Positions 2,205 to 45,191 of a DNA stretch of 64,000 nt are shown piece after piece. The DNA comes from Eubacteriales bacterium (lineage in GTDB: Bacteria; Bacillota; Clostridia; Oscillospirales; CAG-272), in NCBI GenBank assembly GCA_045656985.1, contig JAZOSH010000017.1, forward strand, positions 17,886 to 81,885. Direction: 5' to 3'. Positions within the stretch are counted from its first letter, which is position 1. Every line of letters begins with the position of its first letter. The notes beneath the pieces are model-generated. The model worked only from the letters and a program-made list of their open reading frames with translations. It was not told where the DNA came from and did no database searches. A program made the position numbers and the translations under genes.

Positions 2205-3680
2205 ATGCACAGAATATTCAAATTTCTTTCTCTCTTACTTGCGATAATTATGCTTGCATCTTGTGTTATCGCTTGTAATAATACCCCCGCAGATGACACT
2301 ACATCTGATAATGCAGATACTATTCCCGACGCAGATGTGGTAGTATCAAATCTTCCTGAAATGGATTGGGAAGGCGCTGAATTCAGAGTTCTCGGACGCG
2401 ATGGCGGCGCAGAATATAGCACAATCTTTTCAAACTTTGAGATCACGCGCGACGAGATGCCAGAGGATGTTGTTGGTCAGGCGATATATGAAAGAAACCG
2501 AGCACTATATAACAAGTACAATTTTAAGGTTGTACAAAATCTTCTCATTGATCCTGTAAACGAACACATTCAGGTAATGTACGAGTCGGGTGATGATGTA
2601 TATGATCTTGTAATGGATGTGCCAAAGTTTTGTCAGTCACACGCTCAAAGCGGTTATCTTTTGAATATCAATTCTGACCTCAAATACATAGATCTTGATC
2701 ACCCAAGTTGGAACTCATATGTCAATAAGCAGCTTACTATTGGCGGAAAGCTCTACTATACAATAAGTGATTTTATGCTTCATGATAAGCATAGAACACA
2801 GTTTTTGTTCTATAACAGAGACCTTGCCGCAGACCTTAATCTTGGCTTCTTTGAAGATTTTGTTGATAATAACACATGGACACTTGCCAAAATGAAGGAA
2901 GTTACAAAGGCTGCTTATGCTGATATTGATGGAAAGCAGGGGATAACGCAGACCGACCGTTTTGGACTTGGAATGGAGAACTACGGAAACTTTGCTGGAA
3001 TTATTTATTCTGCTGGATTCCGTCTTACCGAAATGGATAAGAACGGCTATCCCAAACTTGTTGGTGCTACCGATCTTATATTAAATATCGTTGGTGCTTC
3101 ACTTGATATAACAGGTAATAAGCAGATAACCTATGTAATGGAAGACTATTACTATACAGGTGCAAATCCTGCCCATGAGTATCTCTTCAATTACTTTCTT
3201 GAAGGAAATGTACTTATGCTTACAGAGTTTACATCATTTTACGATGAATGGCTCCATCAGGCTACAATAGAGATAGGTGCACTTCCTAATCCCAAATACG
3301 ATAGCTCACAGAGCCAGTACTGCACCTATCCATACGGAACGATCTTTGCAGTACCTTACACAGTGCTTGATACTGATAAGGTTGGTTTCTGTCTTGAGGC
3401 ACTCACTGAAGCTTCCACTGATACAACATATATCACTTATAGAGATACAAAGTGCAAGTATCAGGATGCTTATGATGAGGATTGTGCAAGAATGCTTGAT
3501 CTCTGCTTTGACGGTACGATATATGATGTTGGCGCATTCTGTAATTTTGGAGGCATGCACAGTGGTGTCAGTGTAACCCTACAAAAGGCCGGAACCAATT
3601 CATATAAGAGACTTTACGATACATATAGGAAGTCGGCTCAGAAAGCGATAGACGCTCTCATTGAAGATTATTCAAAATAA
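2205..3680 (+). CDS. Large extracellular solute-binding-protein-like lipoprotein (orphan, no adjacent permeases)
   Basis: Signal peptide plus lipobox (LLLAIIMLASC). 491 aa. Resembles the large family-1 sugar SBPs of Clostridia. SD ACGGAGG upstream. Confidence 0.55.
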   Translation: MHRIFKFLSLLLAIIMLASCVIACNNTPADDTTSDNADTIPDADVVVSNLPEMDWEGAEFRVLGRDGGAEYSTIFSNFEITRDEMPEDVVGQAIYERNRALYNKYNFKVVQNLLIDPVNEHIQVMYESGDDVYDLVMDVPKFCQSHAQSGYLLNINSDLKYIDLDHPSWNSYVNKQLTIGGKLYYTISDFMLHDKHRTQFLFYNRDLAADLNLGFFEDFVDNNTWTLAKMKEVTKAAYADIDGKQGITQTDRFGLGMENYGNFAGIIYSAGFRLTEMDKNGYPKLVGATDLILNIVGASLDITGNKQITYVMEDYYYTGANPAHEYLFNYFLEGNVLMLTEFTSFYDEWLHQATIEIGALPNPKYDSSQSQYCTYPYGTIFAVPYTVLDTDKVGFCLEALTEASTDTTYITYRDTKCKYQDAYDEDCARMLDLCFDGTIYDVGAFCNFGGMHSGVSVTLQKAGTNSYKRLYDTYRKSAQKAIDALIEDYSK

Positions 3681-3688
3681 AACAGATA

Positions 3689-3726
3689 ACCTCTGCCTCG
3701 CAGGAATGTGGGGCAGAGGTTTTTTG
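3689..3726 (+). terminator. Intrinsic terminator
   Basis: ACCTCTGCC (3689-3697) pairs with GGCAGAGGT (3712-3720), followed by TTTTT. Confidence 0.85.
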
Positions 3727-3876
3727 TTAATAATAAATTAACATATATAAAATAAGGTAAGTGCTTGAAATTTTATGTAAAAAAAGGTATAATAATCTTA
3801 TAATTGGGGTAGAATGGTTCATTAAATGTATGACAAATTTTTATCACGAAATATTATAAATTTATGGAGGCGGATT

Positions 3877-5253
3877 ATGGCGCAGAACAACACTTTAGTG
3901 TGCGGCGAGACAAGAGAAAAGCTTGCGTCTTTCTTTGATGCAGGAACATTTGTTGAGCTTTCCGCATACACGAAGCGAAGAACAGCTCCCGAGGAATACG
4001 AGGGCGTAATTTGCGGATACGGAGCGATCAATGGTAAATTAGTTTTTACTTTTGCTCAGGACTCATCAAGAAGCAAGGGTGCATTTGGAGAAAGACAAGC
4101 AAAAAAGATTTGCGAGCTTTATTCTCTTGCAATTAAGAACGGAGCACCCGTTATAGGAATTTTCGACAGCCATGGTGCCGTTGTTTATGACGGTGCAGCA
4201 GCTCTTTCGGCTTATGCAAGACTTATGAAATGTGTATCCGCTGCTTCCGGTATAATTCCTCAAATTGCACTTATTGACGGCATATGCGCAGGTTCATCTG
4301 CTGTTATTGCGTCTATGTTTGACTTTACTGTTACAATAAAGGATAAGTCAAAGCTTTATGTGAATTCTCCCTTTGTGGTAGGAGACGAACTTAGGGAAAG
4401 CGATTTTGCTACAAAGAACGGTACTTCGGCATACTGTGCAGAAAGTGATACAGATGCAACGGACTTCATAAAGAAGCTTGTTGATATTCTCCCCTCAAAT
4501 AATTGTGAGGGTGCGTTCTCGGGCGATGTAGCAGATAATCTTAATCGTAAAATAGACCTTGATGCAAGTAATTATGTTACAGATGAGCTTATCACAAAGC
4601 TTGCAGATAACGGAAGCTTCCTCAAGCTTTACGCAAGCTATACAAATCAGCTTTCAGCAGGACTTGCAACATTTGGTGGAATTACCGCCTGCATTCTTGC
4701 AAGTAATGGCGAAGGTGTGCTTGACATAAAGAGCGCCCGTGTGGCCGCAAGACTTGTTTCGTTCTGTGACAGCTTCAATATTCCTGTTATAAATCTTGTT
4801 GACAGTATTGGTCTTGATATTTCTCTTGAGGCGGAATATGATGCGTATTCCTCCGAGCTTGCAAGACTTGCAACTGTGTATGCTTCTTCAACAAATGCAA
4901 AGATATCTGTTGTTATCGGAAAGGCATACGGTGCATCGTTTGCTCTTCTCGGTTCAAAAGCACTTGGTGCTGATATGGCTTATGCACTTGAAGGAGCTGT
5001 AATAAGCGTGCTTTCTCCCGAAGCATCTATTGCCTTTGTTCTCAATGACAAGGTAGGAGAGAAGAGTCGTGAGGAGCTTGAGGCAGAATGGAAGGAAAAG
5101 CTTGCATCAGCTGACGAGGCTTGTGGTCTCGGTGAAATTGACGATGTTATTGAACCTTCAGAGCTTCGTCAGAGAATATGCGCGGCTCTTTCAATGCTTG
5201 CTTACAAGGCAGAGAATACACCTGTCCGCAAGCATTCAAATCTTCCTCTCTAA
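3877..5253 (+). CDS. Acyl-CoA carboxyltransferase-fold subunit (MmdA/GcdA/12S-like, divergent)
   Basis: ATG 3877 after GGAGG (3866-3870). Two-domain crotonase-like carboxyl-transferase pattern (...GVICGYGAINGKLVFTFAQD..., ...IGKAYGASFALLGSKALGADMAYAL...). The Gly-rich motifs are altered (see findings). Confidence 0.7.
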   Translation: MAQNNTLVCGETREKLASFFDAGTFVELSAYTKRRTAPEEYEGVICGYGAINGKLVFTFAQDSSRSKGAFGERQAKKICELYSLAIKNGAPVIGIFDSHGAVVYDGAAALSAYARLMKCVSAASGIIPQIALIDGICAGSSAVIASMFDFTVTIKDKSKLYVNSPFVVGDELRESDFATKNGTSAYCAESDTDATDFIKKLVDILPSNNCEGAFSGDVADNLNRKIDLDASNYVTDELITKLADNGSFLKLYASYTNQLSAGLATFGGITACILASNGEGVLDIKSARVAARLVSFCDSFNIPVINLVDSIGLDISLEAEYDAYSSELARLATVYASSTNAKISVVIGKAYGASFALLGSKALGADMAYALEGAVISVLSPEASIAFVLNDKVGEKSREELEAEWKEKLASADEACGLGEIDDVIEPSELRQRICAALSMLAYKAENTPVRKHSNLPL

Positions 5254-5265
5254 TTGGAGGTAAGT

Positions 5266-5667
5266 ATGAATAACGTAATCTTACTTACAGCACAGGGAGA
5301 GCTTGGCGGTGCGTTTTCACCCGAGAGAATATCGTATTCTCTGGAGATGACGGCTCTTGGTTTGCTTGCGGTTTTTGCGGTTCTCGCAATACTTTGGGGC
5401 GTGCTTGCGCTCTTTAAGGTGATTATGTACGATATGCCGCAAAAAAAGGCAAAAGCCGAGCCTAAGGAAGAGCCCGCTGTTGCATTTGAGCCCGTCGCAC
5501 CCGTTCCTGTAATAGCGCAGAACGACGACGAGACAGTAGCCGTTATTATGGCGGCAATTTCCGCTTATATTGCGGCAGATCCCGCTCTTGCAGAGGAGTA
5601 TGCCGGTGGCTTTAGAGTTGTGTCCTTTAAGCGTGTACGCGATAAGGCATCATGGAACAAAAAATAA
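5266..5667 (+). CDS. OadG/MmdD-like small membrane anchor subunit
   Basis: ATG 5266 after GGAGG. One TM (ALGLLAVFAVLAILWGVLALF), then an Ala/Pro/Glu-rich tail. Sits between the CT and BCCP genes. Confidence 0.6.
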   Translation: MNNVILLTAQGELGGAFSPERISYSLEMTALGLLAVFAVLAILWGVLALFKVIMYDMPQKKAKAEPKEEPAVAFEPVAPVPVIAQNDDETVAVIMAAISAYIAADPALAEEYAGGFRVVSFKRVRDKASWNKK

Positions 5668-5688
5668 TTGATTGAGAGGATTAAAATT

Positions 5689-6087
5689 ATGAAAAAATAT
5701 AATGTGACCGTAAACGGTGTAGTATATGAAGTAGAGGTTGAAGAGGTAGGCGCAGTTGCATCTGCCCCCGTAGCAGCACCCGCGCCCGTGGCAGCATCTG
5801 CTCCCGCAGCAGCTCCTGTAGCTCCCAAGGCAGCGCCCGCACCCGCTCCCGCAGCAAAGCCCGCAGCGGCAGGTGCAGTTACCGTTAAGGCTCCTATGCC
5901 CGGTAATATTCTCAAGGTAAATGTTAAGGCAGGCGACGCTGTTAAGAAGGGCGATGTTCTTTGCATCCTTGAGGCAATGAAGATGGAAAACGAGATCTGC
6001 GCTCCCGCTGACGGAACAGTAGCAGGTGTAAACGTTTCTCAGGGCGCAACAGTTCAGACCGACGACGTTATCTTGTCGCTCAACTGA
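5689..6087 (+). CDS. Biotin carboxyl carrier protein (1.3S/MmdC/GcdC-like)
   Basis: ATG 5689 after GAGAGGA. Long Ala/Pro linker. Biotinyl domain with LCILEAMKMENEI (AMKM biotinylation motif). Confidence 0.9.
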   Translation: MKKYNVTVNGVVYEVEVEEVGAVASAPVAAPAPVAASAPAAAPVAPKAAPAPAPAAKPAAAGAVTVKAPMPGNILKVNVKAGDAVKKGDVLCILEAMKMENEICAPADGTVAGVNVSQGATVQTDDVILSLN

Positions 6088-6127
6088 TAACTCCTTTTGA
6101 ATATTTTGAAAGGAGGCATAAAAAGAA

Positions 6128-7315
6128 ATGCTTGAAAGCATATTGAATTTTTTAAGTACGACCGGTATAGCCAAGCTTTTCGGAATGGAGCCCCTTGACA
6201 CTTTCAAATGTCTCTTAATGCTCTTTATCTCATTTGTGCTTGTTTATCTTGCAATCGTCAAGAAATTTGAGCCGCTGCTTCTTTTGCCCATAGCTATCGG
6301 TATGCTGCTTACCAACCTTCCCGGAGGTACACTCTTCCATCTTGATTTCTTTATTCAAGAGGAAATAAGCTATAGCCAGATACTTCATGATGGAGGATTT
6401 CTTGATCTGCTTTATCTTGGTGTTAAGCTTGGAATATATCCTTCGCTTATATTTATGGGTATAGGTGCTATGACAGATTTTACACCTCTTATATCCAATC
6501 CTAAGAGTTTGCTTATTGGTGCCGGCGCACAGCTTGGCGTTTTCGTTGCATTCTCAGCGGCGCTTATCTCTGGTGCATTTACCCCCGAGCAGGCTGCGGC
6601 AATAGGAATTATCGGAGGTGCTGACGGACCTACGGCGATCCTTGTAACAAAGACACTCGCCCCCGCGCTACTCGGAGCTATTGCTATTGCGGCGTATAGC
6701 TACATGGCACTTATACCTATGATACAGCCTCCCTTTATGAAGCTCCTTACCACAAAGAAGGAGAGAATGATAAAGATGGAGACACTTCGCCCCGTATCAA
6801 AGACCGAGAAGATCCTTTTCCCAATAGTCGTAACTGCGGTTGTAGGTCTTATCGTTCCCGATGCGCTTCCTCTTATCGGTTGTCTTATGTTTGGTAATCT
6901 CCTTAACGTTTGTGGAGTTACTGATAGACTCTCGAAGACAGCTCAGAACGAGCTTATGAACATAGTAACGATCTTCCTTGGAATATCTGTAGGTGCTACG
7001 GCAAGCGCTGATAACTTCCTTCGTGGAGAAACAGTGCTTATAATCCTTTGCGGACTTGCCGCATTTATCGTGTCTACGATAGGCGGACTTCTTACTGCAA
7101 AGATAATGAACGCTATTACCGGTGGTAAGATAAATCCCCTTATTGGTTCTGCGGGCGTATCGGCCGTTCCTATGGCGGCAAGAGTTTCGCAGAAAGTTGG
7201 ACAGGCAGAGGATCCGTCGAACTTCTTACTTATGCACGCTATGGGACCTAATGTTGCAGGCGTTATTGGCTCTGCGGTTGCTGCGGGAGTATTTCTTTCG
7301 TGGTTTGCCGCATAA
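6128..7315 (+). CDS. oadB: Na+-translocating decarboxylase beta subunit (OadB/MmdB/GcdB family)
   Basis: 395 aa polytopic membrane protein with OAD_beta-like sequence (...[13 protein letters not shown]..., ...[15 protein letters not shown]...). SD AAAGGAGG upstream. Confidence 0.85.
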
Positions 7316-7332
7316 TAATGTGAGGTATTGAA

Positions 7333-8730
7333 ATGAATAAAGTTAAAATTACAGAAACAGTTCTTCGCGATTCGCATCAGTCGCTTATCGCAACAAGAAT
7401 GACAACGGAAGAGATGCTTCCGATACTTGAAAAGCTTGATAAGGTTGGCTACCATTCGCTTGAGGCATGGGGAGGTGCTACCTTTGACTCCTGTATGCGT
7501 TTCCTTAATGAGGATCCTTGGGAGAGACTCCGTAAGATCCGTGAAGCAGTAAAGAACACAAAGCTTCAGATGCTTTTCCGCGGACAGAATATTCTTGGCT
7601 ACCGTCATTATTCCGATGATGTTGTTGAGTATTTTGTTCAGAAGTCAATTGCTAACGGAATTGATATACTTCGTATCTTTGATGCCCTCAACGATCCTAG
7701 AAATCTTGAGACAGCTATCAAGGCAACAAAGAAGGAGAACGGACATGTTCAGGCTGCAATAAGCTACACAACAGGTCCCGTTTATACCACCGAGTATTTC
7801 ACGGGTTACGCAAAGACACTTGAGAATATGGGAGCTGATTCCATTTGTATCAAGGATATGGCAGGACTTCTTAAGCCTTACGATGCGTATGAGCTCGTAA
7901 AAGCCCTCAAGGAGACTGTTAAGGTTCCGATCCAGGTGCACACCCACTATACCTCCGGTCTTGCTTCTATGACACTTCTCAAGTCTATTGAGGCAGGTGC
8001 GGATATTGTTGATACCGCTATCTCGCCTATGGCTATGGGAACATCCCAGCCTCCTACAGAGTCTCTTGTGGCAACTCTTGCAGGAACTGAATATGACACA
8101 GGAATTGATCTTGCTTCGCTTGATGAGATAACCAAATATTTCGCACCTCTCCGTGAGAAGTATCTCGCATCGGGACTTCTTGATCCCAAGATGCTCAAGG
8201 TCGATGTAAACGCGCTTATCTATCAGGTTCCCGGTGGAATGCTCTCTAATCTTGTTTCTCAGCTCAAACAGGCAGGGAAGTCGGATAAGCTTACAGAGGT
8301 GCTTGAGGAAGTTCCGAGAGTAAGAGCAGATGCAGGATATCCACCTCTCGTAACACCTTCGTCACAGATCGTCGGAACACAGGCGGTATTCAATGTAATC
8401 GGCGGTGAGAGATATAAGATGGTTACAAAGGAGTTTAAGGGACTCATTCAGGGTCAGTACGGTAAAGCTCCGGTAGAAATTGATCCCGAATTTACAAAAA
8501 AAATAATCGGAGATACAGAGCTTATAACCTGCCGTCCCGCAGACAAACTTGCTCCCGAGCTTGATACACTTCGTGCACAGATAGCACAGTATATTGAGCA
8601 GGACGAGGATGTGCTTTCATACGCACTCTTTGAGCAGGTTGCCATCAAGTTCTTTGAGTATAGAAAAGCAAAGAAATACGCGCTTGACGCAGAAAATTCT
8701 GACGCTACACTCGGAGTTCATATTGTCTAA
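7333..8730 (+). CDS. oadA: Oxaloacetate decarboxylase alpha / transcarboxylase 5S-like carboxyltransferase, no biotinyl domain
   Basis: MNKVKITETVLRDSHQSLIATRMTTEEM...EAWGGATFD...CIKDMAGLL...VHTHYTSGLA is an HMGL-like TIM barrel plus a PYC_OADA region. The 465 aa protein ends without an AMKM domain. Confidence 0.85.
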   Translation: MNKVKITETVLRDSHQSLIATRMTTEEMLPILEKLDKVGYHSLEAWGGATFDSCMRFLNEDPWERLRKIREAVKNTKLQMLFRGQNILGYRHYSDDVVEYFVQKSIANGIDILRIFDALNDPRNLETAIKATKKENGHVQAAISYTTGPVYTTEYFTGYAKTLENMGADSICIKDMAGLLKPYDAYELVKALKETVKVPIQVHTHYTSGLASMTLLKSIEAGADIVDTAISPMAMGTSQPPTESLVATLAGTEYDTGIDLASLDEITKYFAPLREKYLASGLLDPKMLKVDVNALIYQVPGGMLSNLVSQLKQAGKSDKLTEVLEEVPRVRADAGYPPLVTPSSQIVGTQAVFNVIGGERYKMVTKEFKGLIQGQYGKAPVEIDPEFTKKIIGDTELITCRPADKLAPELDTLRAQIAQYIEQDEDVLSYALFEQVAIKFFEYRKAKKYALDAENSDATLGVHIV

Positions 8731-8737
8731 AATGTAA

Positions 8738-8770
8738 AACAAGCCGTTGCTTTGCAGCGGCTTGTTAATT
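8738..8770 (+). terminator. Hairpin terminator after the decarboxylase operon
   Basis: AACAAGCCGTTGC (8738-8750) pairs with GCAGCGGCTTGTT (8754-8766). The T-tract is weak. Confidence 0.6.
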
Positions 8771-8793
8771 TATAAAGAAAATTCAAAAATCTA

Positions 8794-8822
8794 TTGCAAA
8801 AACAGAGAAAATCTGTTATACT
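8794..8822 (+). promoter_or_regulatory. Sigma-A promoter of SRP RNA (TTGCAA, 17 nt spacer, TATACT)
   Basis: TTGCAA at 8794-8799 and TATACT at 8817-8822. Confidence 0.7.
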
Positions 8823-8828
8823 ATATGT

Positions 8829-9131
8829 ACTGGGTAAATCATAGCCCAGAGCAGCCGCAAGCTGTAAAATAAGGCCATACCAGCCGGGGAATTAGCGGTG
8901 CCCTGTACCTGAAATCCGCTACAGCAGGGGTTCATTCCTTTTTTGAGGGTTGAGCCTTCTACGGTCAAGAGCCGTCCCTGTTGCGTTGACGAGCGGGTCT
9001 TGCGCAATTGGTGATTGTGAACCATGTCAGGTGGGGAACCAAGCAGCATTAAGCAATTTAACTGATGTGCCGCGAGGGCGCCTGCTCCGAGCAATCGGTA
9101 CGGAAATCGCGTAGGGGTAACACTCGATTTT
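8829..9131 (+). ncRNA. ffs: Signal recognition particle RNA, large Bacillus-type with Alu domain (ends approximate)
   Basis: Domain IV core GTCAGGTGGGGAACCAAGCAGC...GATGTGCCGCGAGGG matches the conserved GUCAGGUCCGGAAGGAAGCAGC...AUGUGCCG pattern. The 5' part carries Alu-type elements (UGUAA, GGUGCCCUGUA). Lies immediately upstream of dnaX, as scr does in B. subtilis. Confidence 0.85.
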
Positions 9132-9183
9132 AAGGTGTATGGTCTTATTTTGCAGCTTGCTTATTTTTATGGAGGTGAAAAAA

Positions 9184-10788
9184 GTGCATCAGGCTTTGTA
9201 CAGAAAATGGCGTCCGCAGATCTTTGATGATGTCTACGGTCAGGAGCATATTACCTCCATACTTAAATATGAAACAGAAAAATCTCGTTTTTCCCACGCG
9301 TACCTTTTTTGCGGTTCAAGAGGAACGGGAAAGACAACCTGTGCAAAAATACTTGCAAAGGCTGTTAACTGTGAGGCGCCTGTAAACGGAAATCCCTGTA
9401 ATGAGTGTCCCTCCTGTCGTGCTATTGACGCAGGGACTGTTACCGATATCCTTGAAATGGACGCAGCATCAAATAACAGTGTTGACAATATAAGAGAAAT
9501 TCGTGACGAGGTAATATACACTCCATCTGTTCTGAAATGCAAGGTATACATTGTTGATGAGGTGCACATGCTCTCTTCCAGCGCCTTCAACGCGCTTTTA
9601 AAAACGCTTGAGGAGCCGCCTTCACATGTTGTATTCATTCTTGCCACCACCGAGCTTCATAAGCTTCCTGCAACGATTATCTCGCGTTGTCAGCGTTTTG
9701 ACTTCAGACGTATAAATGTTTCGGATATAATGGCAAGACTCTCACATATCGCGCAAAAAGAGGGAATAAAGGCAGAGAATGATGCACTTCGCCTTATTGC
9801 AAAGAATGCACAGGGCGGAATGAGAGATGCGATAAGTCTTTTTGAGCTTTGCGCGGGTTCAAATGATACTCTCACTGCAGCTGCGGTAGCAGATATCATA
9901 GGAATTAGTGGAAATCAAACGGTTGCAAAAGTTCTTACTGCAATTCATACACAGGACTACGATACAATATTTAGTGTGATTGACGATATCGTTTCTTCAT
10001 CAAAGGATATCTCTGTATTTTGGAATGATGTGATCGCATTTTGCCGCGATATGCTTATTTACAAGACTACAAAGAGGCCTGAGGAATATCTTGATATTAC
10101 TGAAAGTGAAAAAAAGCTTCTTTCCGATACTACTTCGCTTTTTACAAAGGACACACTGATCTATTTTATGCGTCTTTTGAATGACTCTCTTTATACAATG
10201 CAAAGAGCAGGTGGCGCAAAACGAAATATTGCGGAAATGACACTTATCAAAATGGGAGACGAGGGTTTAAGCTTCTCGGAGGATGCATTGCTTTCAAGAA
10301 TATCAAAGCTTGAGGCTCAGCTTGCGGGTGCAAATGTTACCTACAATGCACCAAAGATAATTGAGGAGCCTGTTGAAACAGCTGATAAGGCTCCAAAAAA
10401 TCCCGATAAGCCACAGAAAGCAGAAACACAGCCTGTTGCCGTGTCAAAAGACCAAACGCCCCAGAAAGAAGAAATTTTGCCCGTTACAGAGGAAAAGATT
10501 ATACGGGGATGGCATGATATATGCAATAAGACTTGCGCGGATAATCCGTCTGTAAACTCGCTTATGAAGCAGGCGAGAGGTTATTCAAAAAATGACGGAA
10601 GTGTTGTTATAAAATTCCCAACAGCATTTCCTATGAATATGGTCAAGCAGTCTTCTGTACCTGCCACACTTCCTTCCATTCTAAGTGGCGTACTCAAAAG
10701 GGAAATAACCGAATCTCAGATTGAATATACAGTGTCGCAGATAATTGAAGATGCTGATGATTTTGATGATCTGACCGAAAATAATTAA
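9184..10788 (+). CDS. dnaX: DNA polymerase III subunit gamma/tau
   Basis: GTG 9184 sits 7 nt after GGAGGTG (alternative ATG at 9169). Walker A GSRGTGKTT, zinc module CNECPSC, Walker B IVDEVHML. Confidence 0.92.
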   Translation: MHQALYRKWRPQIFDDVYGQEHITSILKYETEKSRFSHAYLFCGSRGTGKTTCAKILAKAVNCEAPVNGNPCNECPSCRAIDAGTVTDILEMDAASNNSVDNIREIRDEVIYTPSVLKCKVYIVDEVHMLSSSAFNALLKTLEEPPSHVVFILATTELHKLPATIISRCQRFDFRRINVSDIMARLSHIAQKEGIKAENDALRLIAKNAQGGMRDAISLFELCAGSNDTLTAAAVADIIGISGNQTVAKVLTAIHTQDYDTIFSVIDDIVSSSKDISVFWNDVIAFCRDMLIYKTTKRPEEYLDITESEKKLLSDTTSLFTKDTLIYFMRLLNDSLYTMQRAGGAKRNIAEMTLIKMGDEGLSFSEDALLSRISKLEAQLAGANVTYNAPKIIEEPVETADKAPKNPDKPQKAETQPVAVSKDQTPQKEEILPVTEEKIIRGWHDICNKTCADNPSVNSLMKQARGYSKNDGSVVIKFPTAFPMNMVKQSSVPATLPSILSGVLKREITESQIEYTVSQIIEDADDFDDLTENN

Positions 10789-39275: not shown

Positions 39276-40523
39276 TTATGCTCTTGTTGAAAGAACATCT
39301 GTTTCGTATTTTTTAATCTCGTCAAACCATTCGGTGCCTGAAGGAACTCCACAAACGCGGCAGTATTCCTCCCAAACATCGCCCCAAGGAAGCTCCTGAA
39401 GCTGCTCCTGAAGAACAAAGAGCTCTGTGAAGTTTTCAGCATCCTGGAGAGCCTTAAGCTTAGCATGAGGCGCAAGCATTGCAATAAGCATTGCCTTTCT
39501 GAAATTGCGAAGACCAAGAGTCCAAGCGGCTACTCTGTTGATGCTTGCATCAAAATAGTCAAGAGCTATAAAGATGTCGTCAAGTCTTCCGCTTGCAACG
39601 ATCTCTTTGGCAATCTCCTTAGTCTCATCGTCAAGACGAATTACATGATCACTATCCCATCTTACTGCTCGGGTTACATGAAGTGCAAGCTTCTTTGAGT
39701 AAAGAAGAAGTGCTGCGATTTTATCAGAAACGACCTCAGTGGGATGGTAGTGGCCGTTATCCATAAGCGGAACTATGCCACGGCTGAGAGTGTATCCCAT
39801 ACAGAATTCAGAAGATCCAACGGTTGTAGACTCAAATCCAATACCGAACACCTTGGACTCAAGGGTTACGAATACCTTGGACTTGTCATAGGGTATAGAA
39901 AGGATCTCATCAAGAGACTTGAGATAACGCGCTCTCGGACCAAGTCTATCTGCAGGAATATCCTTAAAACCGTCGGGAATCCATATGTTCATTACGCAGG
40001 GCTTACCTGTCTCATTTGCAAAATACTCTGCAATTCTTACGCATGCCTGTCCGTGTCTTACCCAGAATGCGCGTATCTCCTCGTTTGCCGAAGAAAGTGT
40101 GAGCGAGGAAGCCTTGGGGTGCGAGAAGAATGTGGGGTTAAAATCAAGGCCCATGCCCTTTGCTTTTGCAAACTCTACCCATTTAGAAAAGTGTTTGGGA
40201 AGAAGTGCATCTCTGTCTGCCCACTCGCCATCCTCAAAGATTGCGTAACAAGCATGAACATTTATTTTCTTTGCGCCGCCATCAAGCTTCATAACCATTT
40301 CCATATCGGCAAAAAGCTCATCAGGAGTGCGTGCACGACCGGGATAGTTACCCGTTGTCTGAATACCGCCGCTGAGCTCAGAATCGCTATCAAAGCCTCT
40401 TACATCGTCGCCCTGCCAGCAATGCATGGATACTGGAATATTCTTAAGCTTGTTGATTACCTCATCGGTGTCAATACCGTAGGCAGCGTATTTTTCCTTT
40501 GCAAGTGAATATGCTGTGTTCAT
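39276..40523 (-). CDS. rhaA: L-rhamnose isomerase
   Basis: 415 aa: ...IPVSMHCWQGDDVRGF...NVHACYA..., RhaA-like throughout. Confidence 0.9.
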   Translation of the reverse strand: MNTAYSLAKEKYAAYGIDTDEVINKLKNIPVSMHCWQGDDVRGFDSDSELSGGIQTTGNYPGRARTPDELFADMEMVMKLDGGAKKINVHACYAIFEDGEWADRDALLPKHFSKWVEFAKAKGMGLDFNPTFFSHPKASSLTLSSANEEIRAFWVRHGQACVRIAEYFANETGKPCVMNIWIPDGFKDIPADRLGPRARYLKSLDEILSIPYDKSKVFVTLESKVFGIGFESTTVGSSEFCMGYTLSRGIVPLMDNGHYHPTEVVSDKIAALLLYSKKLALHVTRAVRWDSDHVIRLDDETKEIAKEIVASGRLDDIFIALDYFDASINRVAAWTLGLRNFRKAMLIAMLAPHAKLKALQDAENFTELFVLQEQLQELPWGDVWEEYCRVCGVPSGTEWFDEIKKYETDVLSTRA

Positions 40524-40538
40524 CTTAATACCTCTCTA

Positions 40539-41924
40539 TTATTTTATTATTTTAATTTCAAAAGAATTTCTTATTGCCTCTCTTGCCTCTTCAACCGATG
40601 CAAACTCACCGTTTGCAATCATAAGACAAAGAAGATTTCCAAGAGAAGTTGCCTCAACGGGACCCGCGTATACCGTCATATTACAGTGTTTAGCAGTAAG
40701 CTCGTTAAGGAAGTTGTCCTGGCAACCGCCACCGAAAATATTTATGGTTTCATATCTGACACCCGACATTTCGGAGAGCTCTCTTATGGTATCAGCATAG
40801 CTTATAGCAAGACTGTGATATACGCAGCAAAGAAGCTCGTCAATAGGTAGCTCGGGAGCATTGCAATAATCGCGAATAGCACCTATCATCGTTTTGGGGG
40901 CGAGGAAGGCTTTATCATTAACATCAATTCTGTAGCTTGTATCACCAACTGCTCTTGCCATATCGCAAAGCTCTCCAAAGGAGTACTTATCGAGCTCCTT
41001 CTTAATGGATTGAATTATCCAAAGTCCCATAATATTCTTAAGAACTCTGTATGTATGGTTATATCCACCCTCGTTAGTTACATTGTTTTTCTCTGCAATC
41101 TCTGTTGCATAAGGAATCTTTGATTCAATGCCCATAAGTGACCATGTTCCGGAGCTGAGGTAAATTGACTTATCTGTGACAGCAGGAGACGCAAGATAAG
41201 CAGAAGCAGTGTCATGAGACGGAGCATGAAGAACAGTAAGATTGTAACCTACCTTCTCAGCAATTGCATCAGAAAGTTTTCCTACAACCTCGCCGGGCTG
41301 TGCAAGCTTGTGGAAGAGGCGTGTGGGATAGCCAAGCTTCTCAATAAGCTCTATATCCCATTCTCCTGTCTTGATATCAACAAGCTGTGTTGTTGAAGCA
41401 TTGGTATATTCTTGCGATTTAACACCCGTGAGACAGTAATTAAGAAGATCCGGTATCATAAGCAGGTCATCAGCAGTCTCAAGTTGCTCGGGAGACTCTG
41501 TCTTAACTGCCATAAGCTGATAAATGGTATTAAATATCTGCTTCTGTATTCCTGTTCTTGCGTAGACCTCGGAGGCAGATACTATCTTATATACCTCGTT
41601 GTCCATTTCGTCTGTTCTTGAATCACGGTATGCAACTGTATCACCTATAATAGCTCCGTTCTTATCAAGAAGCGCAAAGTCAACTCCCCATGTATCTATA
41701 CCAAGAAATTCAGGCTGTTTGCCTATTTCCTTACACTTTGCGATACCCGCAATTACATGAGAAAGAAGTCCGTCAAAATCCCAACATTTTTTGCCATTCT
41801 TTTCGGATGCACCGTTCGGAAAACGATAAACCTCCTCAAGAACTATTTTCCCGTTTTCAATGTGACCAAGTATGTGACGACCGCTTGATGCACCTATGTC
41901 AACAGCGAGATAATATGTAGACAT
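40539..41924 (-). CDS. rhaB: Rhamnulokinase
   Basis: FGGY kinase N-terminus YLAVDIGASSGRHILG and C-terminal INIFGGGCQDNFLNELTA. Adjacent to rhaA. Confidence 0.88.
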   Translation of the reverse strand: MSTYYLAVDIGASSGRHILGHIENGKIVLEEVYRFPNGASEKNGKKCWDFDGLLSHVIAGIAKCKEIGKQPEFLGIDTWGVDFALLDKNGAIIGDTVAYRDSRTDEMDNEVYKIVSASEVYARTGIQKQIFNTIYQLMAVKTESPEQLETADDLLMIPDLLNYCLTGVKSQEYTNASTTQLVDIKTGEWDIELIEKLGYPTRLFHKLAQPGEVVGKLSDAIAEKVGYNLTVLHAPSHDTASAYLASPAVTDKSIYLSSGTWSLMGIESKIPYATEIAEKNNVTNEGGYNHTYRVLKNIMGLWIIQSIKKELDKYSFGELCDMARAVGDTSYRIDVNDKAFLAPKTMIGAIRDYCNAPELPIDELLCCVYHSLAISYADTIRELSEMSGVRYETINIFGGGCQDNFLNELTAKHCNMTVYAGPVEATSLGNLLCLMIANGEFASVEEAREAIRNSFEIKIIK

Positions 41925-42096
41925 AAAAACCTCCTATATATAATAAATATACTTTTCTATAGTAAATTTTACCATATAATGAAGACATGTAAAAGGACTA
42001 ACTTTAGCAATATTTGTGTCTTTTTTTGCACTAGAAGTATTGATTTTTTATTATTTAGTGATATAATTAGCATATATCAATCATATGGAGGATAAG

Positions 42097-43080
42097 ATGA
42101 ACAAGGAAATACTTGCTAAACTCTCCGAAATAACCGAGGAGGAGCGCGGACTCTTAAGTACGGAAAAGAAAATAAAAACCAATATTTATTGGGGTGCAGG
42201 AAATTCCCAGGTTGAGATGTGTCGTGTTGCATTAAGCTCGGAGGGAGCTTCAAATTCTCCTGTTCTTGTAAGAACACATACCCGGTTTTCTGACTTCCCT
42301 GTCCATTCGCATGACTACATTGAGATGATGTATGTCTGTAGCGGGAATATTACACACATTATAGGCGAAAAAGAAATAAAGACCGAAAGTGGTGACATAA
42401 TTCTTCTTGGACGAAACACCCGTCATTCTCCAAAGCGTGCCGAGAGCTCTGACATTGGAATAAATATTATTATTTCTGCAGATTTCTTTGAAGCACTTAT
42501 AAATAAAATGAGGCTTGAAAATCTGATATCAGATCACCCGATTGACAACCTTCTGCAAAACGACGACTCTCAATATTATCTCTTTCATACAAAAGAGCTT
42601 TCTCATATAGAAAACCTTCTTGAAAATATTATCTCGTCAATTATTAACGAAAAAAGGATAATGCCATATATACTTGAGCGTGAGATGGAACTTCTTCTTT
42701 GTTATCTTTGCTTTATTCCCGAAGAGCTTACAGAACACTCAACTGTTATGATTTATTCAAACGAGATAAAAAGGATTGTTACAAATTATATTCAGACTAC
42801 ATATAAAAACGCCAATCTTGGTGACCTCGCTGTTCTTGTAGGCTTTACTCCAACCTATATGAGCCGCTGGATACGGAAGAATATGGACACTACATTTAAG
42901 GAGCTTTTACTTGAACAGCGCTTTGCTGTAGCATCTGATCTGCTTATAAGAACCAACATGTCGGTCAGCGACATACTCAACAGCGTAGGATATGAAAACA
43001 GCAGTTATTTTCATAAACAATTCATTGCCAGATTCGGTTTGACACCGAGAGAATTTAGAAAGCATCAAAACAACAAATAA
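42097..43080 (+). CDS. AraC-family transcriptional regulator (cupin + HTH), likely rhamnose regulator
   Basis: ATG 42097 after GGAGG. Cupin region (HSHDYIEMMYV). C-terminal AraC HTH (...GYENSSYFHKQFIARFGLTPREFR). Divergent from rhaBA. Confidence 0.85.
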   Translation: MNKEILAKLSEITEEERGLLSTEKKIKTNIYWGAGNSQVEMCRVALSSEGASNSPVLVRTHTRFSDFPVHSHDYIEMMYVCSGNITHIIGEKEIKTESGDIILLGRNTRHSPKRAESSDIGINIIISADFFEALINKMRLENLISDHPIDNLLQNDDSQYYLFHTKELSHIENLLENIISSIINEKRIMPYILEREMELLLCYLCFIPEELTEHSTVMIYSNEIKRIVTNYIQTTYKNANLGDLAVLVGFTPTYMSRWIRKNMDTTFKELLLEQRFAVASDLLIRTNMSVSDILNSVGYENSSYFHKQFIARFGLTPREFRKHQNNK

Positions 43081-43083
43081 AAA

Positions 43084-43117
43084 GAGTGCGCAGCAAAAGC
43101 TGCGCACTTCTTATTTT
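43084..43117. terminator. Bidirectional terminator (AraC gene / galM)
   Basis: AGTGCGCAGC-AAAA-GCTGCGCACT, then TCTTATTTT. Confidence 0.85.
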
Positions 43118-44172
43118 ACGGAAAATTTATATATCGTCGTATAATCGTATGTTTCACCTGCAGAAAGATAAACATTATTGAAATTATCATGATTTACGCT
43201 ATCAGGCATTTTTTGTGTTTCAAGACAAACAAGGGAGTATAAAGGCAAAACAGTTCCCTTCTTGAAGGGACAATCTTTAGGAGTAGCTTCATTAAAGCTA
43301 TAGATTTGTACACAAGGCTGATTTGTAAAAAGCTCCATATAGCGGCCGCTTTTTTTATCGTAAAGAGAACCGCGAAGCACAGGGGCTTTTGTCTCTCCTC
43401 CTGAAAAGACAAAGCAATGGTCATATCCGTTTGCATATTTAATACATATGTCCTCTGACTCAATATCCTTACCTATTTCCTTGGGGACTCTAAAATCAAA
43501 AGGTGTACCTTCAACTGATCTTATCTCTCCTGTAGGAATAAGCTCTTCGTCAGTAGGTAAAAAGCAATCTGCATCAAGCATCATTATCTGTTCGCGTATG
43601 CTACGGCTATCGTATCCGGCGAGATTGAAGTAGGCATGGTTAGTCATATTTATAGGAGTTTTTTTATCGGTAGTCGCTTTGTAATCAATGTACAATGAAT
43701 TATCTGCCTTAAGTGTGTATGTGACCTTGATTTTTAGTGTGCCTGGATAACCCTCCTCACCGTCAGGAGATGTATAGCTTAACACAAGAGAGGGCTCATC
43801 TCCGTCTATTTCTTGGGCATTCCATATTTTTTTATCAAACCCATTTTTTCCACCATGAAGATGGTTCCTACCGTCATTAGTGTAAAGAGTATATTTTTTT
43901 TCATCAAGAGAAAACTCTCCTTTTGCTATCCTGTTTGCATAACGACCGACGATTGCACCCTGATAGCTCTTACCACGAATGTACTCTTCAAGGGTATCAT
44001 AACCTGCAATTACATCTGCAAATTTACCCTCTCGGTCAACAACAGAGATAGAAACCAAGGTTGCCCCATAGTTCATTATTTTTATCTCACTATCAAGCGT
44101 ATTTTTTAAGGAAAAAATATATACATCTTGTCCGTCAGGACATTTGCCAAACAATTCTTTTTTTATGCTCAT
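43111..44172 (-). CDS. galM: Aldose 1-epimerase (galactose mutarotase)
   Basis: ATG 44172 (MSIKKELFG...) lies right after the galE stop. ...VGRYANRIAKGEF...NHLHGG...TNHAYFNL. Confidence 0.88.
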   Translation of the reverse strand: MSIKKELFGKCPDGQDVYIFSLKNTLDSEIKIMNYGATLVSISVVDREGKFADVIAGYDTLEEYIRGKSYQGAIVGRYANRIAKGEFSLDEKKYTLYTNDGRNHLHGGKNGFDKKIWNAQEIDGDEPSLVLSYTSPDGEEGYPGTLKIKVTYTLKADNSLYIDYKATTDKKTPINMTNHAYFNLAGYDSRSIREQIMMLDADCFLPTDEELIPTGEIRSVEGTPFDFRVPKEIGKDIESEDICIKYANGYDHCFVFSGGETKAPVLRGSLYDKKSGRYMELFTNQPCVQIYSFNEATPKDCPFKKGTVLPLYSLVCLETQKMPDSVNHDNFNNVYLSAGETYDYTTIYKFSVK

Positions 44173-44174
44173 AT

Positions 44175-45191
44175 TCAGTCTTCTCCATATCCGTCGGGAT
44201 TTTTGCTTTGCCAATTATAAGAGTCACGGCACATTTCGTCAATGCCGTATTCAGCACGCCATCCAAGTACCTCAAATGCTTTACCGGGATCTGCGTAGCA
44301 CTCGTCAATATCGCCTGCACGCCGGTCTGTGAACTTATAATTTATCTTTATTCCACTCGCTTTTTCATATGCAGCAACAATGTCAAGAACAGAGTATCCG
44401 TTGCCTGTTCCAATATTAAAATATTCAACGCTAGATACTTTTTCAGCCCTGTTAAGCGCACATACATGTGCTCTTGCAAGATCTACAACATGAATATAGT
44501 CGCGCACTCCTGTTCCGTCATGAGTCTTATAATCATTTCCAAATACGGATAGGCATTCTCTCTTACCTGATGCTACCTGCATAATATAAGGTAAAAGATT
44601 GTTTGGTATTCCCTTGGGATCCTCGCCTATCAAGCCACTTGAATGTGCACCGATAGGATTGAAATAACGAAGAATTGAAATACTCCACTCATTATCAGAT
44701 TTCCAAATGTCAGAAAGTATTCTTTCAATTACGAGTTTAGTCTCTCCATAAGGATTTTCGGTTGAAAGGGGGAAATCCTCACGAACAGGTACCGATGCAG
44801 GTCTACCATAAACAGTTGCTGATGAACTAAAAACAATTCTCTTGGCACCATATTTCTGCATCAGCGCACAGAGATTGAGCGTGCCTGTAATGTTATTATG
44901 ATAATACCAAAGTGGCTTCTGGCATGATTCTCCTACAGCCTTAAGACCAGCAAAATGGATACAGCTGTCTATCTTGTTTTCCTTGAAAACAGTCTCAAGA
45001 GCATCATAATCAAGAAGATCTATCTTATAGAACTTGAAGTCCTTACCTGTAATATCCCTTACTCTGTCAAGCGCTGTTTCCTTGCTATTTGAAAGATTGT
45101 CAACACAAATGATCTCTCTGCCAGAATTAAGGAACTCAACCATCGCATGCGTTCCGATATAGCCTGCTCCGCCCGTAATTAAAATTGCCAT
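44175..45191 (-). CDS. galE: UDP-glucose 4-epimerase
   Basis: ILITGGAGYIGTH Rossmann motif, YGETK (YxxxK), 338 aa. Confidence 0.95.
   Translation of the reverse strand: MAILITGGAGYIGTHAMVEFLNSGREIICVDNLSNSKETALDRVRDITGKDFKFYKIDLLDYDALETVFKENKIDSCIHFAGLKAVGESCQKPLWYYHNNITGTLNLCALMQKYGAKRIVFSSSATVYGRPASVPVREDFPLSTENPYGETKLVIERILSDIWKSDNEWSISILRYFNPIGAHSSGLIGEDPKGIPNNLLPYIMQVASGKRECLSVFGNDYKTHDGTGVRDYIHVVDLARAHVCALNRAEKVSSVEYFNIGTGNGYSVLDIVAAYEKASGIKINYKFTDRRAGDIDECYADPGKAFEVLGWRAEYGIDEMCRDSYNWQSKNPDGYGED

Follow-up and report, generated by a model that had tools for sequence, protein, structure and literature searches.

A conserved five-gene operon encoding two carboxyltransferases, one biotin carrier and an OadB-type Na+ pump subunit in uncultured gut Clostridia

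Five co-directional genes at positions 3877-8730 of the window (the whole 64-kb stretch of DNA analysed here) encode a divergent 12S/PccB-fold carboxyltransferase (CT), an OadG-like anchor (G), a free biotin carboxyl carrier (BCCP), an OadB-type pump subunit (B) and a 5S/OadA-type CT (5S), an arrangement that recurs in many uncultured Clostridia of the gut. We propose, with a probability of about 0.45, that the five proteins form one membrane-bound biotin complex in which a single swinging carrier serves three catalytic stations, the third of which probably leads to malonyl-CoA. If this is true, the same biotin carrier supplies a Na+ pump and also a path to malonyl-CoA that needs no ATP. We found no biochemical study of a complex of this kind in the literature searched.

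Conservation and layout of the operon

Domain searches of the five ORFs gave Carboxyl_trans, OAD_gamma, Biotin_lipoyl, OAD_beta and HMGL-like plus PYC_OADA, the assignments that the first-pass annotation had expected. Two unrelated CT folds are indeed encoded beside a single biotin carrier, a single beta pump subunit and a single gamma anchor, and this combination is conserved across genomes. The order CT-G-BCCP-B-5S was found in 21 of 21 related GTDB loci as far as the contigs reach (5 of the 21 end early at a contig end) and, again as far as the contigs reach, in five metagenome loci (L022, L024, L025, L027 and L028) whose CTs are only 37–51% identical to that of the window. Such recurrence is far beyond chance. 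The collection lists the protein shared by L027 and L028 in 111 blocks, a human-gut sample among them, and the source habitats of the related loci are rumen and gut. In five loci a Na+/H+ antiporter gene lies divergently upstream, and L026 is a pump-less variant inside the same CT radiation. The operon is thus a widespread family in many uncultured gut Clostridia and neither a one-off chimera nor a unique mixture; pump-less relatives are already present in the literature.

The genes are separated by gaps of 12, 21, 40 and 17 nt, and ribosome-binding sites were seen when the junctions were read directly. Together with one strong upstream promoter, these gaps bear out the tight co-directional operon that had been claimed. 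The promoter (3765-3793, forward strand, as for the operon elements below) is of the sigma-70 type, with TTGAAA, a 17-nt spacer and TATAAT matching 11 of 12 consensus positions, and related loci keep equivalent -35 and extended -10 elements. A 15-bp terminator hairpin (3688-3721) lies upstream of it. Located 5' of the -35 element is a conserved A/T-rich box (3726-3746, consensus TTCAyAwAAAwTTAACAA), of which the k-mer AAATTAACA is common to 12 of 22 upstream regions with differing flanking genes; judged from the sequence, this box might serve as an UP element or bind an activator. No FapR- or FabT-like palindrome was recognised upstream of the window operon or its relatives in a comparison by eye with consensus sequences.

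The 5' leader of about 75 nt (3803-3876) begins with a conserved sequence, ATTGGGGTAGAAtGGTT, and its ribosome-binding region is conserved as well. Across 17 loci the leader keeps its 5' end and its length, which in nearly all of them is 73–77 nt. A consensus secondary structure of the leader was sought across the related loci and none was found, nor did the leader match Rfam. At the other end, the single terminator described by the first-pass annotation corresponds to a hairpin at 8746-8761, but this hairpin is weak, with only 6 bp (3 G-C) and few T residues in its tail. An SRP RNA gene (8875-9142), with a promoter-like site of its own at 8794-8822, marks the downstream limit of the operon.

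Properties of the five subunits

The first gene (3877-5253, forward strand, like the other four) encodes a 458-aa subunit with the 12S/PccB fold (Pfam Carboxyl_trans, 243 bits, E = 7e-72). Its AlphaFold model (pLDDT 89) gave TM scores of 0.88–0.90 to PccB and 12S at 31–34% identity. However, the protein scored 304 bits against TIGR01117, whose cut-off is 999, and the canonical CT motifs DSGGARIQEG, PG[YF]xPG, GIIRHGAK and YGGAY are all replaced. It was rejected as a canonical MmdA, GcdA or 12S protein on these grounds, and the earlier label of acyl-CoA decarboxylase alpha subunit is unjustified for the same reasons. Compared with three canonical CTs, it keeps 18 of 55 invariant motif residues; among those lost are the Arg and Glu of DSGGARIQEG and the R-H-G-A-K segment, which are invariant in the three.

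The family to which this protein belongs is a large radiation of uncharacterised CTs, many members of which are called "hypothetical protein" by PGAP. Its columns homologous to the canonical active-site motifs are the best conserved (entropy 0.63 versus 1.07 bits, p = 1e-5), residues at the acyl-pocket positions scarcely vary (F/Y/T), and the C-terminal ...KH-N-PL tail is kept in the window protein. A dN/dS of 0.12 against the related locus L001 points to purifying selection. By dN/dS the CT evolves 4–5 times faster than the beta and 5S subunits, and identities across loci are 36–75% for the CT, 74–97% for 5S and 65–99% for beta.

The second gene encodes an OadG/MmdD-like membrane anchor (5266-5667; Pfam OAD_gamma 56.7 bits, cut-off 27) with one transmembrane helix, a Pro/Ala/Glu-rich linker and a C-terminal tail, ...ITAAIxAY...FRVVSFKR...WN, that is conserved in the alignment across loci. 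The mechanical ORF runs from 5254, and an ATG at 5266 is preceded by a GGAGG ribosome-binding site. It is followed by a free biotin carrier of the 1.3S/MmdC/OadD type (5689-6087; Pfam Biotin_lipoyl 80 bits), which contains the N-terminal assembly motif MKKYNVTVNGVVYEVEVEEV, an Ala/Pro linker and the biotinylation site EAMKMENEI (EAMKM). This N-terminus is of the 1.3S/MmdC type and is conserved in all lineages examined. The carrier aligns to residues 479–594 of the OadA model NF010643 and reached 147 bits against the MmdC model NF047903, under the cut-off of 200.

The fourth gene (6128-7315; Pfam OAD_beta 517 bits) encodes a carboxybiotin decarboxylase and Na+ pump subunit of the OadB/MmdB/GcdB type, which passes TIGR01109 (492 bits, cut-off 191). 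It aligns to Salmonella OadB (6iva) with 390 bits, and two segments of 15 and 20 residues are identical; these presumably include D203, Y229, N373, G377, S382 and R389 of OadB. The last gene (7333-8730) encodes a 465-aa oxaloacetate-pyruvate CT of the OadA/5S/PycB type (HMGL-like plus PYC_OADA) without a biotinyl domain. Its score against NF008985, "oxaloacetate decarboxylase subunit alpha", was 804.6 bits (curated cut-off 718), whereas the 5S model NF008984 gave 596 bits, under its cut-off of 827. Among solved structures, PycB (5ks8) scored 538 bits, Vibrio cholerae OadA (2nx9) 524 and 5S (1rqb) 479. The LRDSHQS, IKDMAG and HTHYTSG motifs, which are metal and carbamyl-lysine motifs, are kept. 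The last four genes are therefore predicted to encode all parts of a split-alpha Na+ oxaloacetate decarboxylase whose catalytic and Na+-site residues are intact.

A three-station model and its alternatives

In the model that we favor, the 5S/OadA-type subunit would be the first station, transferring the carboxyl group of oxaloacetate to the biotin of the free carrier and releasing pyruvate. At the second station, the OadB-type subunit with its OadG-like anchor would decarboxylate carboxybiotin and export Na+. The divergent 12S-fold CT would provide a second exit, passing the carboxyl group to an acyl-CoA, most likely acetyl-CoA, in which case malonyl-CoA would be made without ATP. A role in malonyl-CoA formation has also been proposed in the literature for pump-less relatives: Clo1313_1523-1526 of Clostridium thermocellum, an operon version without the pump, is regarded as a putative malonyl-CoA-forming transcarboxylase, and no oxaloacetate decarboxylase activity was detected in this organism (PMC5414155, PMC8303734). 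Deletion of fapR derepresses the CT-hypothetical-BCCP-"OAD" operon of Caldicellulosiruptor bescii, for which a FapR site is predicted and which was called a malonyl-CoA biosynthesis unit (PMC7071700). The complex might thus divide the carboxyl groups of oxaloacetate between energy conservation, as a Na+ gradient, and biosynthesis. Since a pump within the same complex would compete with biosynthetic transfer, such a partition would need some control. The earlier suggestion of a membrane-tethered transcarboxylase or a switchable combination comes close to this model. Its gene content and conserved order, the intact residues of the first two stations, and the fold and constraint of the 12S-fold CT are observed; the union of all five proteins in one complex, the activity of that CT, its acyl-CoA substrate and the direction of flux are what we infer.

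Another possibility is that both CTs load the carrier, the first from methylmalonyl-, malonyl- or another carboxy-acyl-CoA and the 5S-type subunit from oxaloacetate, and that both loads are discharged at OadB, giving a dual-substrate Na+ pump. The first four genes stand in the exact order mmdA-mmdD-mmdC-mmdB, which is the characterised operon order in Veillonella parvula and Propionigenium modestum. The best NCBIfam matches are likewise mmdA, MmdD and MmdC, the pump and anchor are intact, and a Na+/H+ antiporter adjoins the operon in some loci. However, all mmd-family scores lie under their curated cut-offs (304 versus 999, 30 versus 150 and 147 versus 200), the CT has replaced the canonical MmdA/12S motifs, and the pump-less relatives could not work in this manner. 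We looked for methylmalonyl-CoA mutase or epimerase, a second BCCP and a second oadA, as the first-pass annotation had proposed, and none is present within the 64-kb window; nothing here therefore points to methylmalonyl-CoA as a substrate. A cultured relative with a CT-BCCP-5S cluster also has no identifiable methylmalonyl-CoA mutase (PMC7764203). A dual-substrate pump seems unlikely.

The CT-like protein might instead be inert, an oligomeric core or adaptor (cf. the 12S hexamer in transcarboxylase) that keeps the split OadA and the free carrier attached to the gamma-beta membrane module, and the complex would then be a plain oxaloacetate decarboxylase Na+ pump. Given that the CT evolves faster than 5S and beta, a structural role would fit as well; loss of the canonical active-site residues, retention of the C-terminal tail and overall fold, and the PGAP labels are also consistent with it. 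In Enterococcus faecalis, the extra subunit OadH is reportedly required for the interaction of OadA with OadD. OadH is the fourth subunit of that enzyme and a proposed functional homologue of OadG (PMC6193673). On the other hand, conservation in the CT family is highest at the positions that correspond to the active site and its pocket residues hardly vary, and a 458-aa enzyme fold would be a costly adaptor where E. faecalis manages with a small protein. Moreover, the complex of the pump-less relatives could turn over only via a second active CT, and the failure to detect decarboxylase activity in C. thermocellum also argues against an inert protein, which we consider doubtful.

It is quite improbable that the complex runs in reverse in a CO2- and Na+-rich gut, with Na+ influx via OadB carboxylating biotin without ATP and the two CTs forming oxaloacetate from pyruvate and malonyl-CoA from acetyl-CoA. 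A Na+ gradient is said to reverse both oxaloacetate and methylmalonyl-CoA decarboxylases in vitro, the best solved relative of the 5S subunit is a pyruvate carboxylase beta subunit (5ks8), the window contains no biotin carboxylase gene, and the rumen and gut habitats would be suitable, but the energetics are demanding (approximately 30 kJ/mol versus 1–2 Na+).

Comparison with related systems

The clusters of C. thermocellum (Clo1313_1523-1526) and C. bescii (B5X54_RS07175-07190) resemble the window operon in their order of CT, small gamma-like protein, BCCP and 5S/"OAD", and they too come from Clostridia and are biochemically uncharacterised. An OadB pump gene, which the window operon carries between BCCP and 5S, is absent from both. 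Their CTs are placed in the window CT clade by gene order and annotation only, and FapR control has been shown only for the C. bescii cluster.

Separation of OadA from its biotin carrier has a precedent in E. faecalis, and Archaeoglobus fulgidus has a similar split enzyme. Like the window operon, the E. faecalis enzyme (OadA, OadD, OadB and OadH) combines an OadA that is roughly 465 aa long and lacks a biotinyl domain with a separate carrier, an OadB pump subunit and a small accessory subunit; the two OadA proteins share the NCBIfam model NF008985, whose cut-off the window protein exceeds. In contrast, the window operon has an OAD_gamma-family anchor in place of OadH, adds the 458-aa 12S-fold CT as its first gene, and lacks a citrate lyase or citrate transporter context.

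The mmdA-mmdD-mmdC-mmdB systems agree with the window in the order alpha(CT)-delta(anchor)-gamma(BCCP)-beta(pump), in the folds of these four subunits and in the N-terminal motif of the carrier. They differ in that the window CT does not reach the MmdA cut-off and has its canonical motifs replaced, and that an oxaloacetate CT is appended as a fifth gene, with no mutase or epimerase nearby. All three component types of the Propionibacterium transcarboxylase (12S, 5S and 1.3S) are present in the window as well, including a 12S-like fold, a last gene related to 5S and a 1.3S-like carrier with its assembly motif. However, the window CT is only 31–32% identical to 12S and has a remodelled active site, the last gene falls under the 5S cut-off, and, while the transcarboxylase has no membrane subunits, the window operon encodes both B and G.

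Operon layout and the predicted oxaloacetate decarboxylase

The operon (3877-8730) consists of five co-directional genes on the plus strand, and their ORFs and Pfam domains match the account in the first-pass annotation. They are a Carboxyl_trans gene (3877-5253; 243 bits), an OAD_gamma gene (5266-5667), a Biotin_lipoyl gene (5689-6087; 80 bits, EAMKM site), an OAD_beta gene (6128-7315; 517 bits), and an HMGL-like plus PYC_OADA gene (7333-8730) whose 465-aa product has no biotinyl domain. The gaps of 12, 21, 40, and 17 nt between them, as first described, were read directly at the junctions, and a GGAGG-type ribosome-binding site precedes all five start codons. A 15-bp terminator (3688-3721) closes the gene upstream of the operon, and a near-consensus promoter (TTGAAA-17-TATAAT) lies ahead of the operon at 3765-3793. 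A terminator had also been claimed at the operon end, where we found merely a weak hairpin (8746-8761). The downstream limit is an SRP RNA gene (8875-9142) followed by dnaX-ybaB-recR. On the upstream side lie yabP-yabQ-divIC, indicating that the host is a spore-forming member of Clostridia.

Several other features of the window were also recorded. The SRP RNA gene (plus strand), directly 5' of dnaX, is of the bacterial large type (RF01854, 171.5 bits) and carries a promoter-like site of its own (8794-8822). An ORF of 491 aa without a Pfam match (2205-3680, plus strand) separates divIC from the operon; L001, the locus from the closest genome, has it twice in tandem at 4710-7806, the copies being about 64% identical to the window protein. 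A sugar-utilisation cluster at 39276-45191 encodes L-rhamnose isomerase, an FGGY kinase, an AraC-type regulator, aldose 1-epimerase, and an NAD-dependent epimerase. The G+C content of the window is about 39%; it reaches about 45% over the operon region (4001-10000), versus 35-42% in most of the window. This rise fits either highly conserved or expressed genes or a foreign origin of part of the operon.

Four of the five products are predicted to form a complete Na+ oxaloacetate decarboxylase with a split alpha subunit. The 5S/OadA-type subunit scored 804.6 bits against NF008985, the NCBI curated model of the short Firmicute OadA (cut-off 718), 538 bits against a PycB, 524 bits against Vibrio cholerae OadA, and 479 bits against transcarboxylase 5S; it retains the metal/carbamyl-lysine motifs LRDSHQS, IKDMAG, and HTHYTSG. 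The beta subunit scored 492 bits against TIGR01109 (cut-off 191) and 390 bits against Salmonella OadB, to which it is identical over two segments of 15 and 20 residues. These segments carry D203, Y229, N373, G377, S382, and R389, residues indispensable to both the decarboxylation of carboxybiotin and the transport of Na+. The gamma protein, in which a linker joins one transmembrane helix to a conserved C-terminal tail, scored 56.7 bits against Pfam OAD_gamma (cut-off 27) and 34.3 bits against TIGR01195, slightly under its cut-off of 36.05. The carrier has an N-terminal assembly motif of the 1.3S/MmdC/GcdC type (MKKYNVTVNGVVYEVEVEEV), an Ala/Pro linker, and a biotinylation site, and aligns with residues 479-594 of another OadA model (NF010643), the portion absent from the short alpha subunit.

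A divergent carboxyltransferase as the first gene

The unusual part of the operon is its first gene (3877-5253), which encodes a carboxyltransferase (CT) with the full PccB/12S fold (AlphaFold model pLDDT 89; TM 0.88-0.90). Its identity to every solved carboxyltransferase is only 31-34%, and it scored 304 bits against the MmdA model TIGR01117, whose cut-off is 998.8. When the CT family was aligned with three canonical enzymes, the hallmark motifs were found to be replaced throughout the family: DSGGARIQEG by DSxGAVVYDG, GPCAGGAVYSPA by GVC(G/A)GSSAVxAS, PG(Y/F)xPG by EGLDVS, GIIRHGAK by YASELA(R/K), and YGGAY by YGAAF, with the LGGA loop deleted. The CT retains 18 of the 55 motif residues that are invariant across the three canonical enzymes.

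The protein is not decaying: all copies are intact, and comparison with the nearest genome gives a dN/dS of 0.12. Within the family, conservation is highest in the columns homologous to the canonical motifs (entropy 0.63 versus 1.07 bits, p = 1e-5). In Methylobacterium extorquens PccB, the acyl pocket is shaped by L100, Y143, and D407; the matching positions of the CT family are nearly invariant F, Y, and T, and PDB matches to the CT include L100 variants of PccB. The CT is likely to be catalytically active.

Among the 150 nearest 50%-identity representatives, 92 lacked all three scored canonical features and one had all three, which places the CT in a large radiation of carboxyltransferases that are non-canonical and uncharacterised. 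Protein, representative, and cluster searches gave only MAG or metagenome proteins and no cultured or characterised member of the family, and an exact-sequence look-up of the window's CT returned no record. The named members retrieved all come from MAGs, under the labels "hypothetical protein", "carboxyl transferase", or "methylmalonyl-CoA carboxyltransferase". More generally, annotation pipelines are inconsistent on the operon genes (oxaloacetate decarboxylase, methylmalonyl-CoA carboxyltransferase, acetyl-CoA carboxylase component, hypothetical protein). Metabolic reconstructions of these organisms are thus probably in error at the PEP-pyruvate-oxaloacetate node and for fatty-acid synthesis.

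Conservation, regulatory region and history

A scan of GTDB with one genome per species found 21 related loci, all in uncultured gut or rumen MAGs of Clostridia, Oscillospiraceae, or Lachnospiraceae. The order CT, gamma, BCCP, beta, 5S was kept in every one of them as far as the contig extends. The same five genes, with CTs 37-51% identical, were present on five metagenome contigs (L022, L024, L025, L027, and L028), and the L027/L028 protein occurred in 111 blocks of the collection, one human-gut sample among them. The five-gene operon is thus conserved and no accident. A further metagenome locus, L026, contains the CT, a small protein, BCCP, and 5S, with no space for a pump gene. A reduced arrangement was observed in an abundant relative (P0136, a 143-member cluster; L023, 674-3914): two tiny ORFs separate the CT from a 410-aa protein that matches PYC_OADA only, without the HMGL-like barrel, and neither a BCCP nor a pump could be recognised at this locus.

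Comparison of neighbourhoods showed that the window's flanks are common only to L001. In other loci the recurrent neighbours are DUF3792, a Na+/H+ antiporter, and an XRE-type HTH protein, a functional clue that is suggestive, not decisive. Upstream of the operon, a DUF3792 membrane protein was found in 8 loci, divergent in each of them, and an NhaC-type antiporter (PF03553) in 5. Both occur in L002 (2586-4791), L004, L009, L014, and L016, and DUF3792 alone in L010, L012, L013, and L015; the pair fits an active Na+ cycle. The XRE-family protein (about 290-320 aa), co-directional and 5' of the operon in three divergent lineages (L018, 6666-7631; L019; L027/L028, 7877-8746), is a candidate regulator. 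Just ahead of it, L027 and L028 encode a stand-alone Fumerase_C protein.

The promoter region (3726-3876) is strikingly similar to the upstream regions of L001-L017, L018, and L020 despite their differing neighbours. The conserved parts are an A/T-rich distal box (TTCAyAwAAAwTTAACAA), the -35 element, and an extended -10 element, and the motif ATTGGGGTAGAAGGTTT lies immediately 3' of the latter in a leader whose length hardly varies (about 75 nt). No Rfam match was obtained for the region at gathering or E-value thresholds, and 17 homologous leaders yielded no consensus RNA structure; on these grounds a riboswitch (e.g., for Na+ or Li+) was rejected. The conserved region could act as an operator, stabilise the mRNA at its 5' end, or reflect constraint on the initially transcribed sequence. 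A FapR/FabT-like palindrome was not seen in a by-eye comparison of 22 upstream regions with the consensus sequences.

We also compared window positions 5170-8730 with L001 9280-12852. Relative to L001, the operon is a mosaic. Nucleotide identity, about 72% before position 5170, rises near there to 85-99%. Synonymous divergence (dS) has a genome-like value in the CT (1.36), as in the flanking ybaB (1.39) and recR (2.4), and is lower in the pump half (gamma 0.27, BCCP 0.43, beta 0.23, 5S 0.76). This suggests that the pump half was recently recombined or transferred, or that it is under unusually strong codon constraint.

Proposed mechanism and comparison with known systems

The first-pass annotation had proposed that two carboxyltransferases share one carrier and one pump, as a dual-substrate Na+ pump, a membrane-tethered transcarboxylase, or a switchable combination. 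The five-gene operon it observed stands, and its interpretation is borne out in part. We propose that one carrier serves three stations. Oxaloacetate would be decarboxylated onto biotin at the 5S subunit, and carboxybiotin would then be decarboxylated at OadB with Na+ export. As an alternative exit, the divergent CT would pass the carboxyl group of carboxybiotin to an acyl-CoA, most plausibly acetyl-CoA. The pump half of this scheme is highly likely, and acetyl-CoA is only tentatively named as acceptor. For the model as a whole, we estimate a probability of about 0.45.

Other readings were weighed. The enzyme might be a dual-input decarboxylase, or the CT, with most of its canonical motif residues replaced, might be an inert scaffold; the well-conserved motif columns of the family speak against the latter, and we consider both readings unlikely. 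A reversed, Na+-driven carboxylase is very improbable. Improbable, too, is a reversible three-way carboxybiotin hub, in which one carrier would join oxaloacetate/pyruvate, acetyl-CoA/malonyl-CoA, and Na+-coupled CO2 sites. In the 64-kb window we found neither the methylmalonyl-CoA mutase nor the epimerase of a succinate-to-propionate context, neither the citrate lyase nor the citrate transporter of citrate fermentation in the E. faecalis or Klebsiella style, and no acc or fab genes; the window thus offers no metabolic context to separate the models.

If the three-station model is right, these uncultured Clostridia, a common group in gut and rumen, would have one machine that ties central carbon flow both to sodium bioenergetics and to the supply of lipid precursors. 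The route would run from PEP through oxaloacetate to pyruvate and save one ATP per malonyl-CoA. It would also be the first biotin enzyme found, in the literature searched, with two unrelated carboxyltransferases and a pump on one carrier, a combination that offers a natural test bed for how a swinging carrier chooses its station. Should the hub be true, malonyl-CoA would be made without any ATP-dependent biotin carboxylase in many of these Clostridia, as would oxaloacetate at high Na+ gradient and CO2, and an ion-gradient-coupled enzyme would stand in for both ACC and pyruvate carboxylase. The operon's importance would rise if a three-way hub, above all its reversible form, were demonstrated.

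In the freely readable full-text literature, we found no characterisation of a five-subunit complex of CT, gamma, BCCP, beta, and 5S. Pump-less relatives have been described. A four-gene operon of C. bescii, annotated as methylmalonyl-CoA carboxyl transferase, hypothetical protein, BCCP, and oxaloacetate decarboxylase, has a predicted FapR site, is derepressed in a fapR deletion, and was termed a malonyl-CoA biosynthesis unit (PMC7071700). [quoted passage not shown] A caproate-producing isolate without an identifiable mutase has a CT 33% identical to 12S, a BCCP, and an OAD 52% identical to 5S (PMC7764203).

Unlike the Klebsiella and Vibrio oxaloacetate decarboxylases, whose biotinyl domain is fused to alpha, the window's alpha subunit stops at 465 aa and the carrier is a separate gene, as in the split enzyme of E. 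faecalis (OadA, OadD, and OadB plus OadH; PMC6193673). The order of the first four genes is that of methylmalonyl-CoA decarboxylase (MmdABCDE; alpha-delta-gamma-beta), whereas the CT is not of the MmdA type, with TIGR01117 far below cut-off and DSGGARIQEG, PGYxPG, GIIRHGAK, and YGGAY replaced. Compared with Propionibacterium 12S, it keeps the fold and the C-terminal tail at 31-32% identity, with the motifs remodelled. In contrast to the soluble 12S/5S/1.3S transcarboxylase, the operon contains genes for the membrane subunits OAD_beta and OAD_gamma. The C. thermocellum and C. bescii clusters (CT, gamma-like, BCCP, 5S), compared by gene order and annotation, have the same order as the window with OadB inserted in the latter, and L026 is their metagenomic pump-less counterpart. 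Overall, the operon appears to be a novel form of the biotin-dependent Na+ decarboxylases and transcarboxylases already known, and it is widespread among uncultured Clostridia of the gut.
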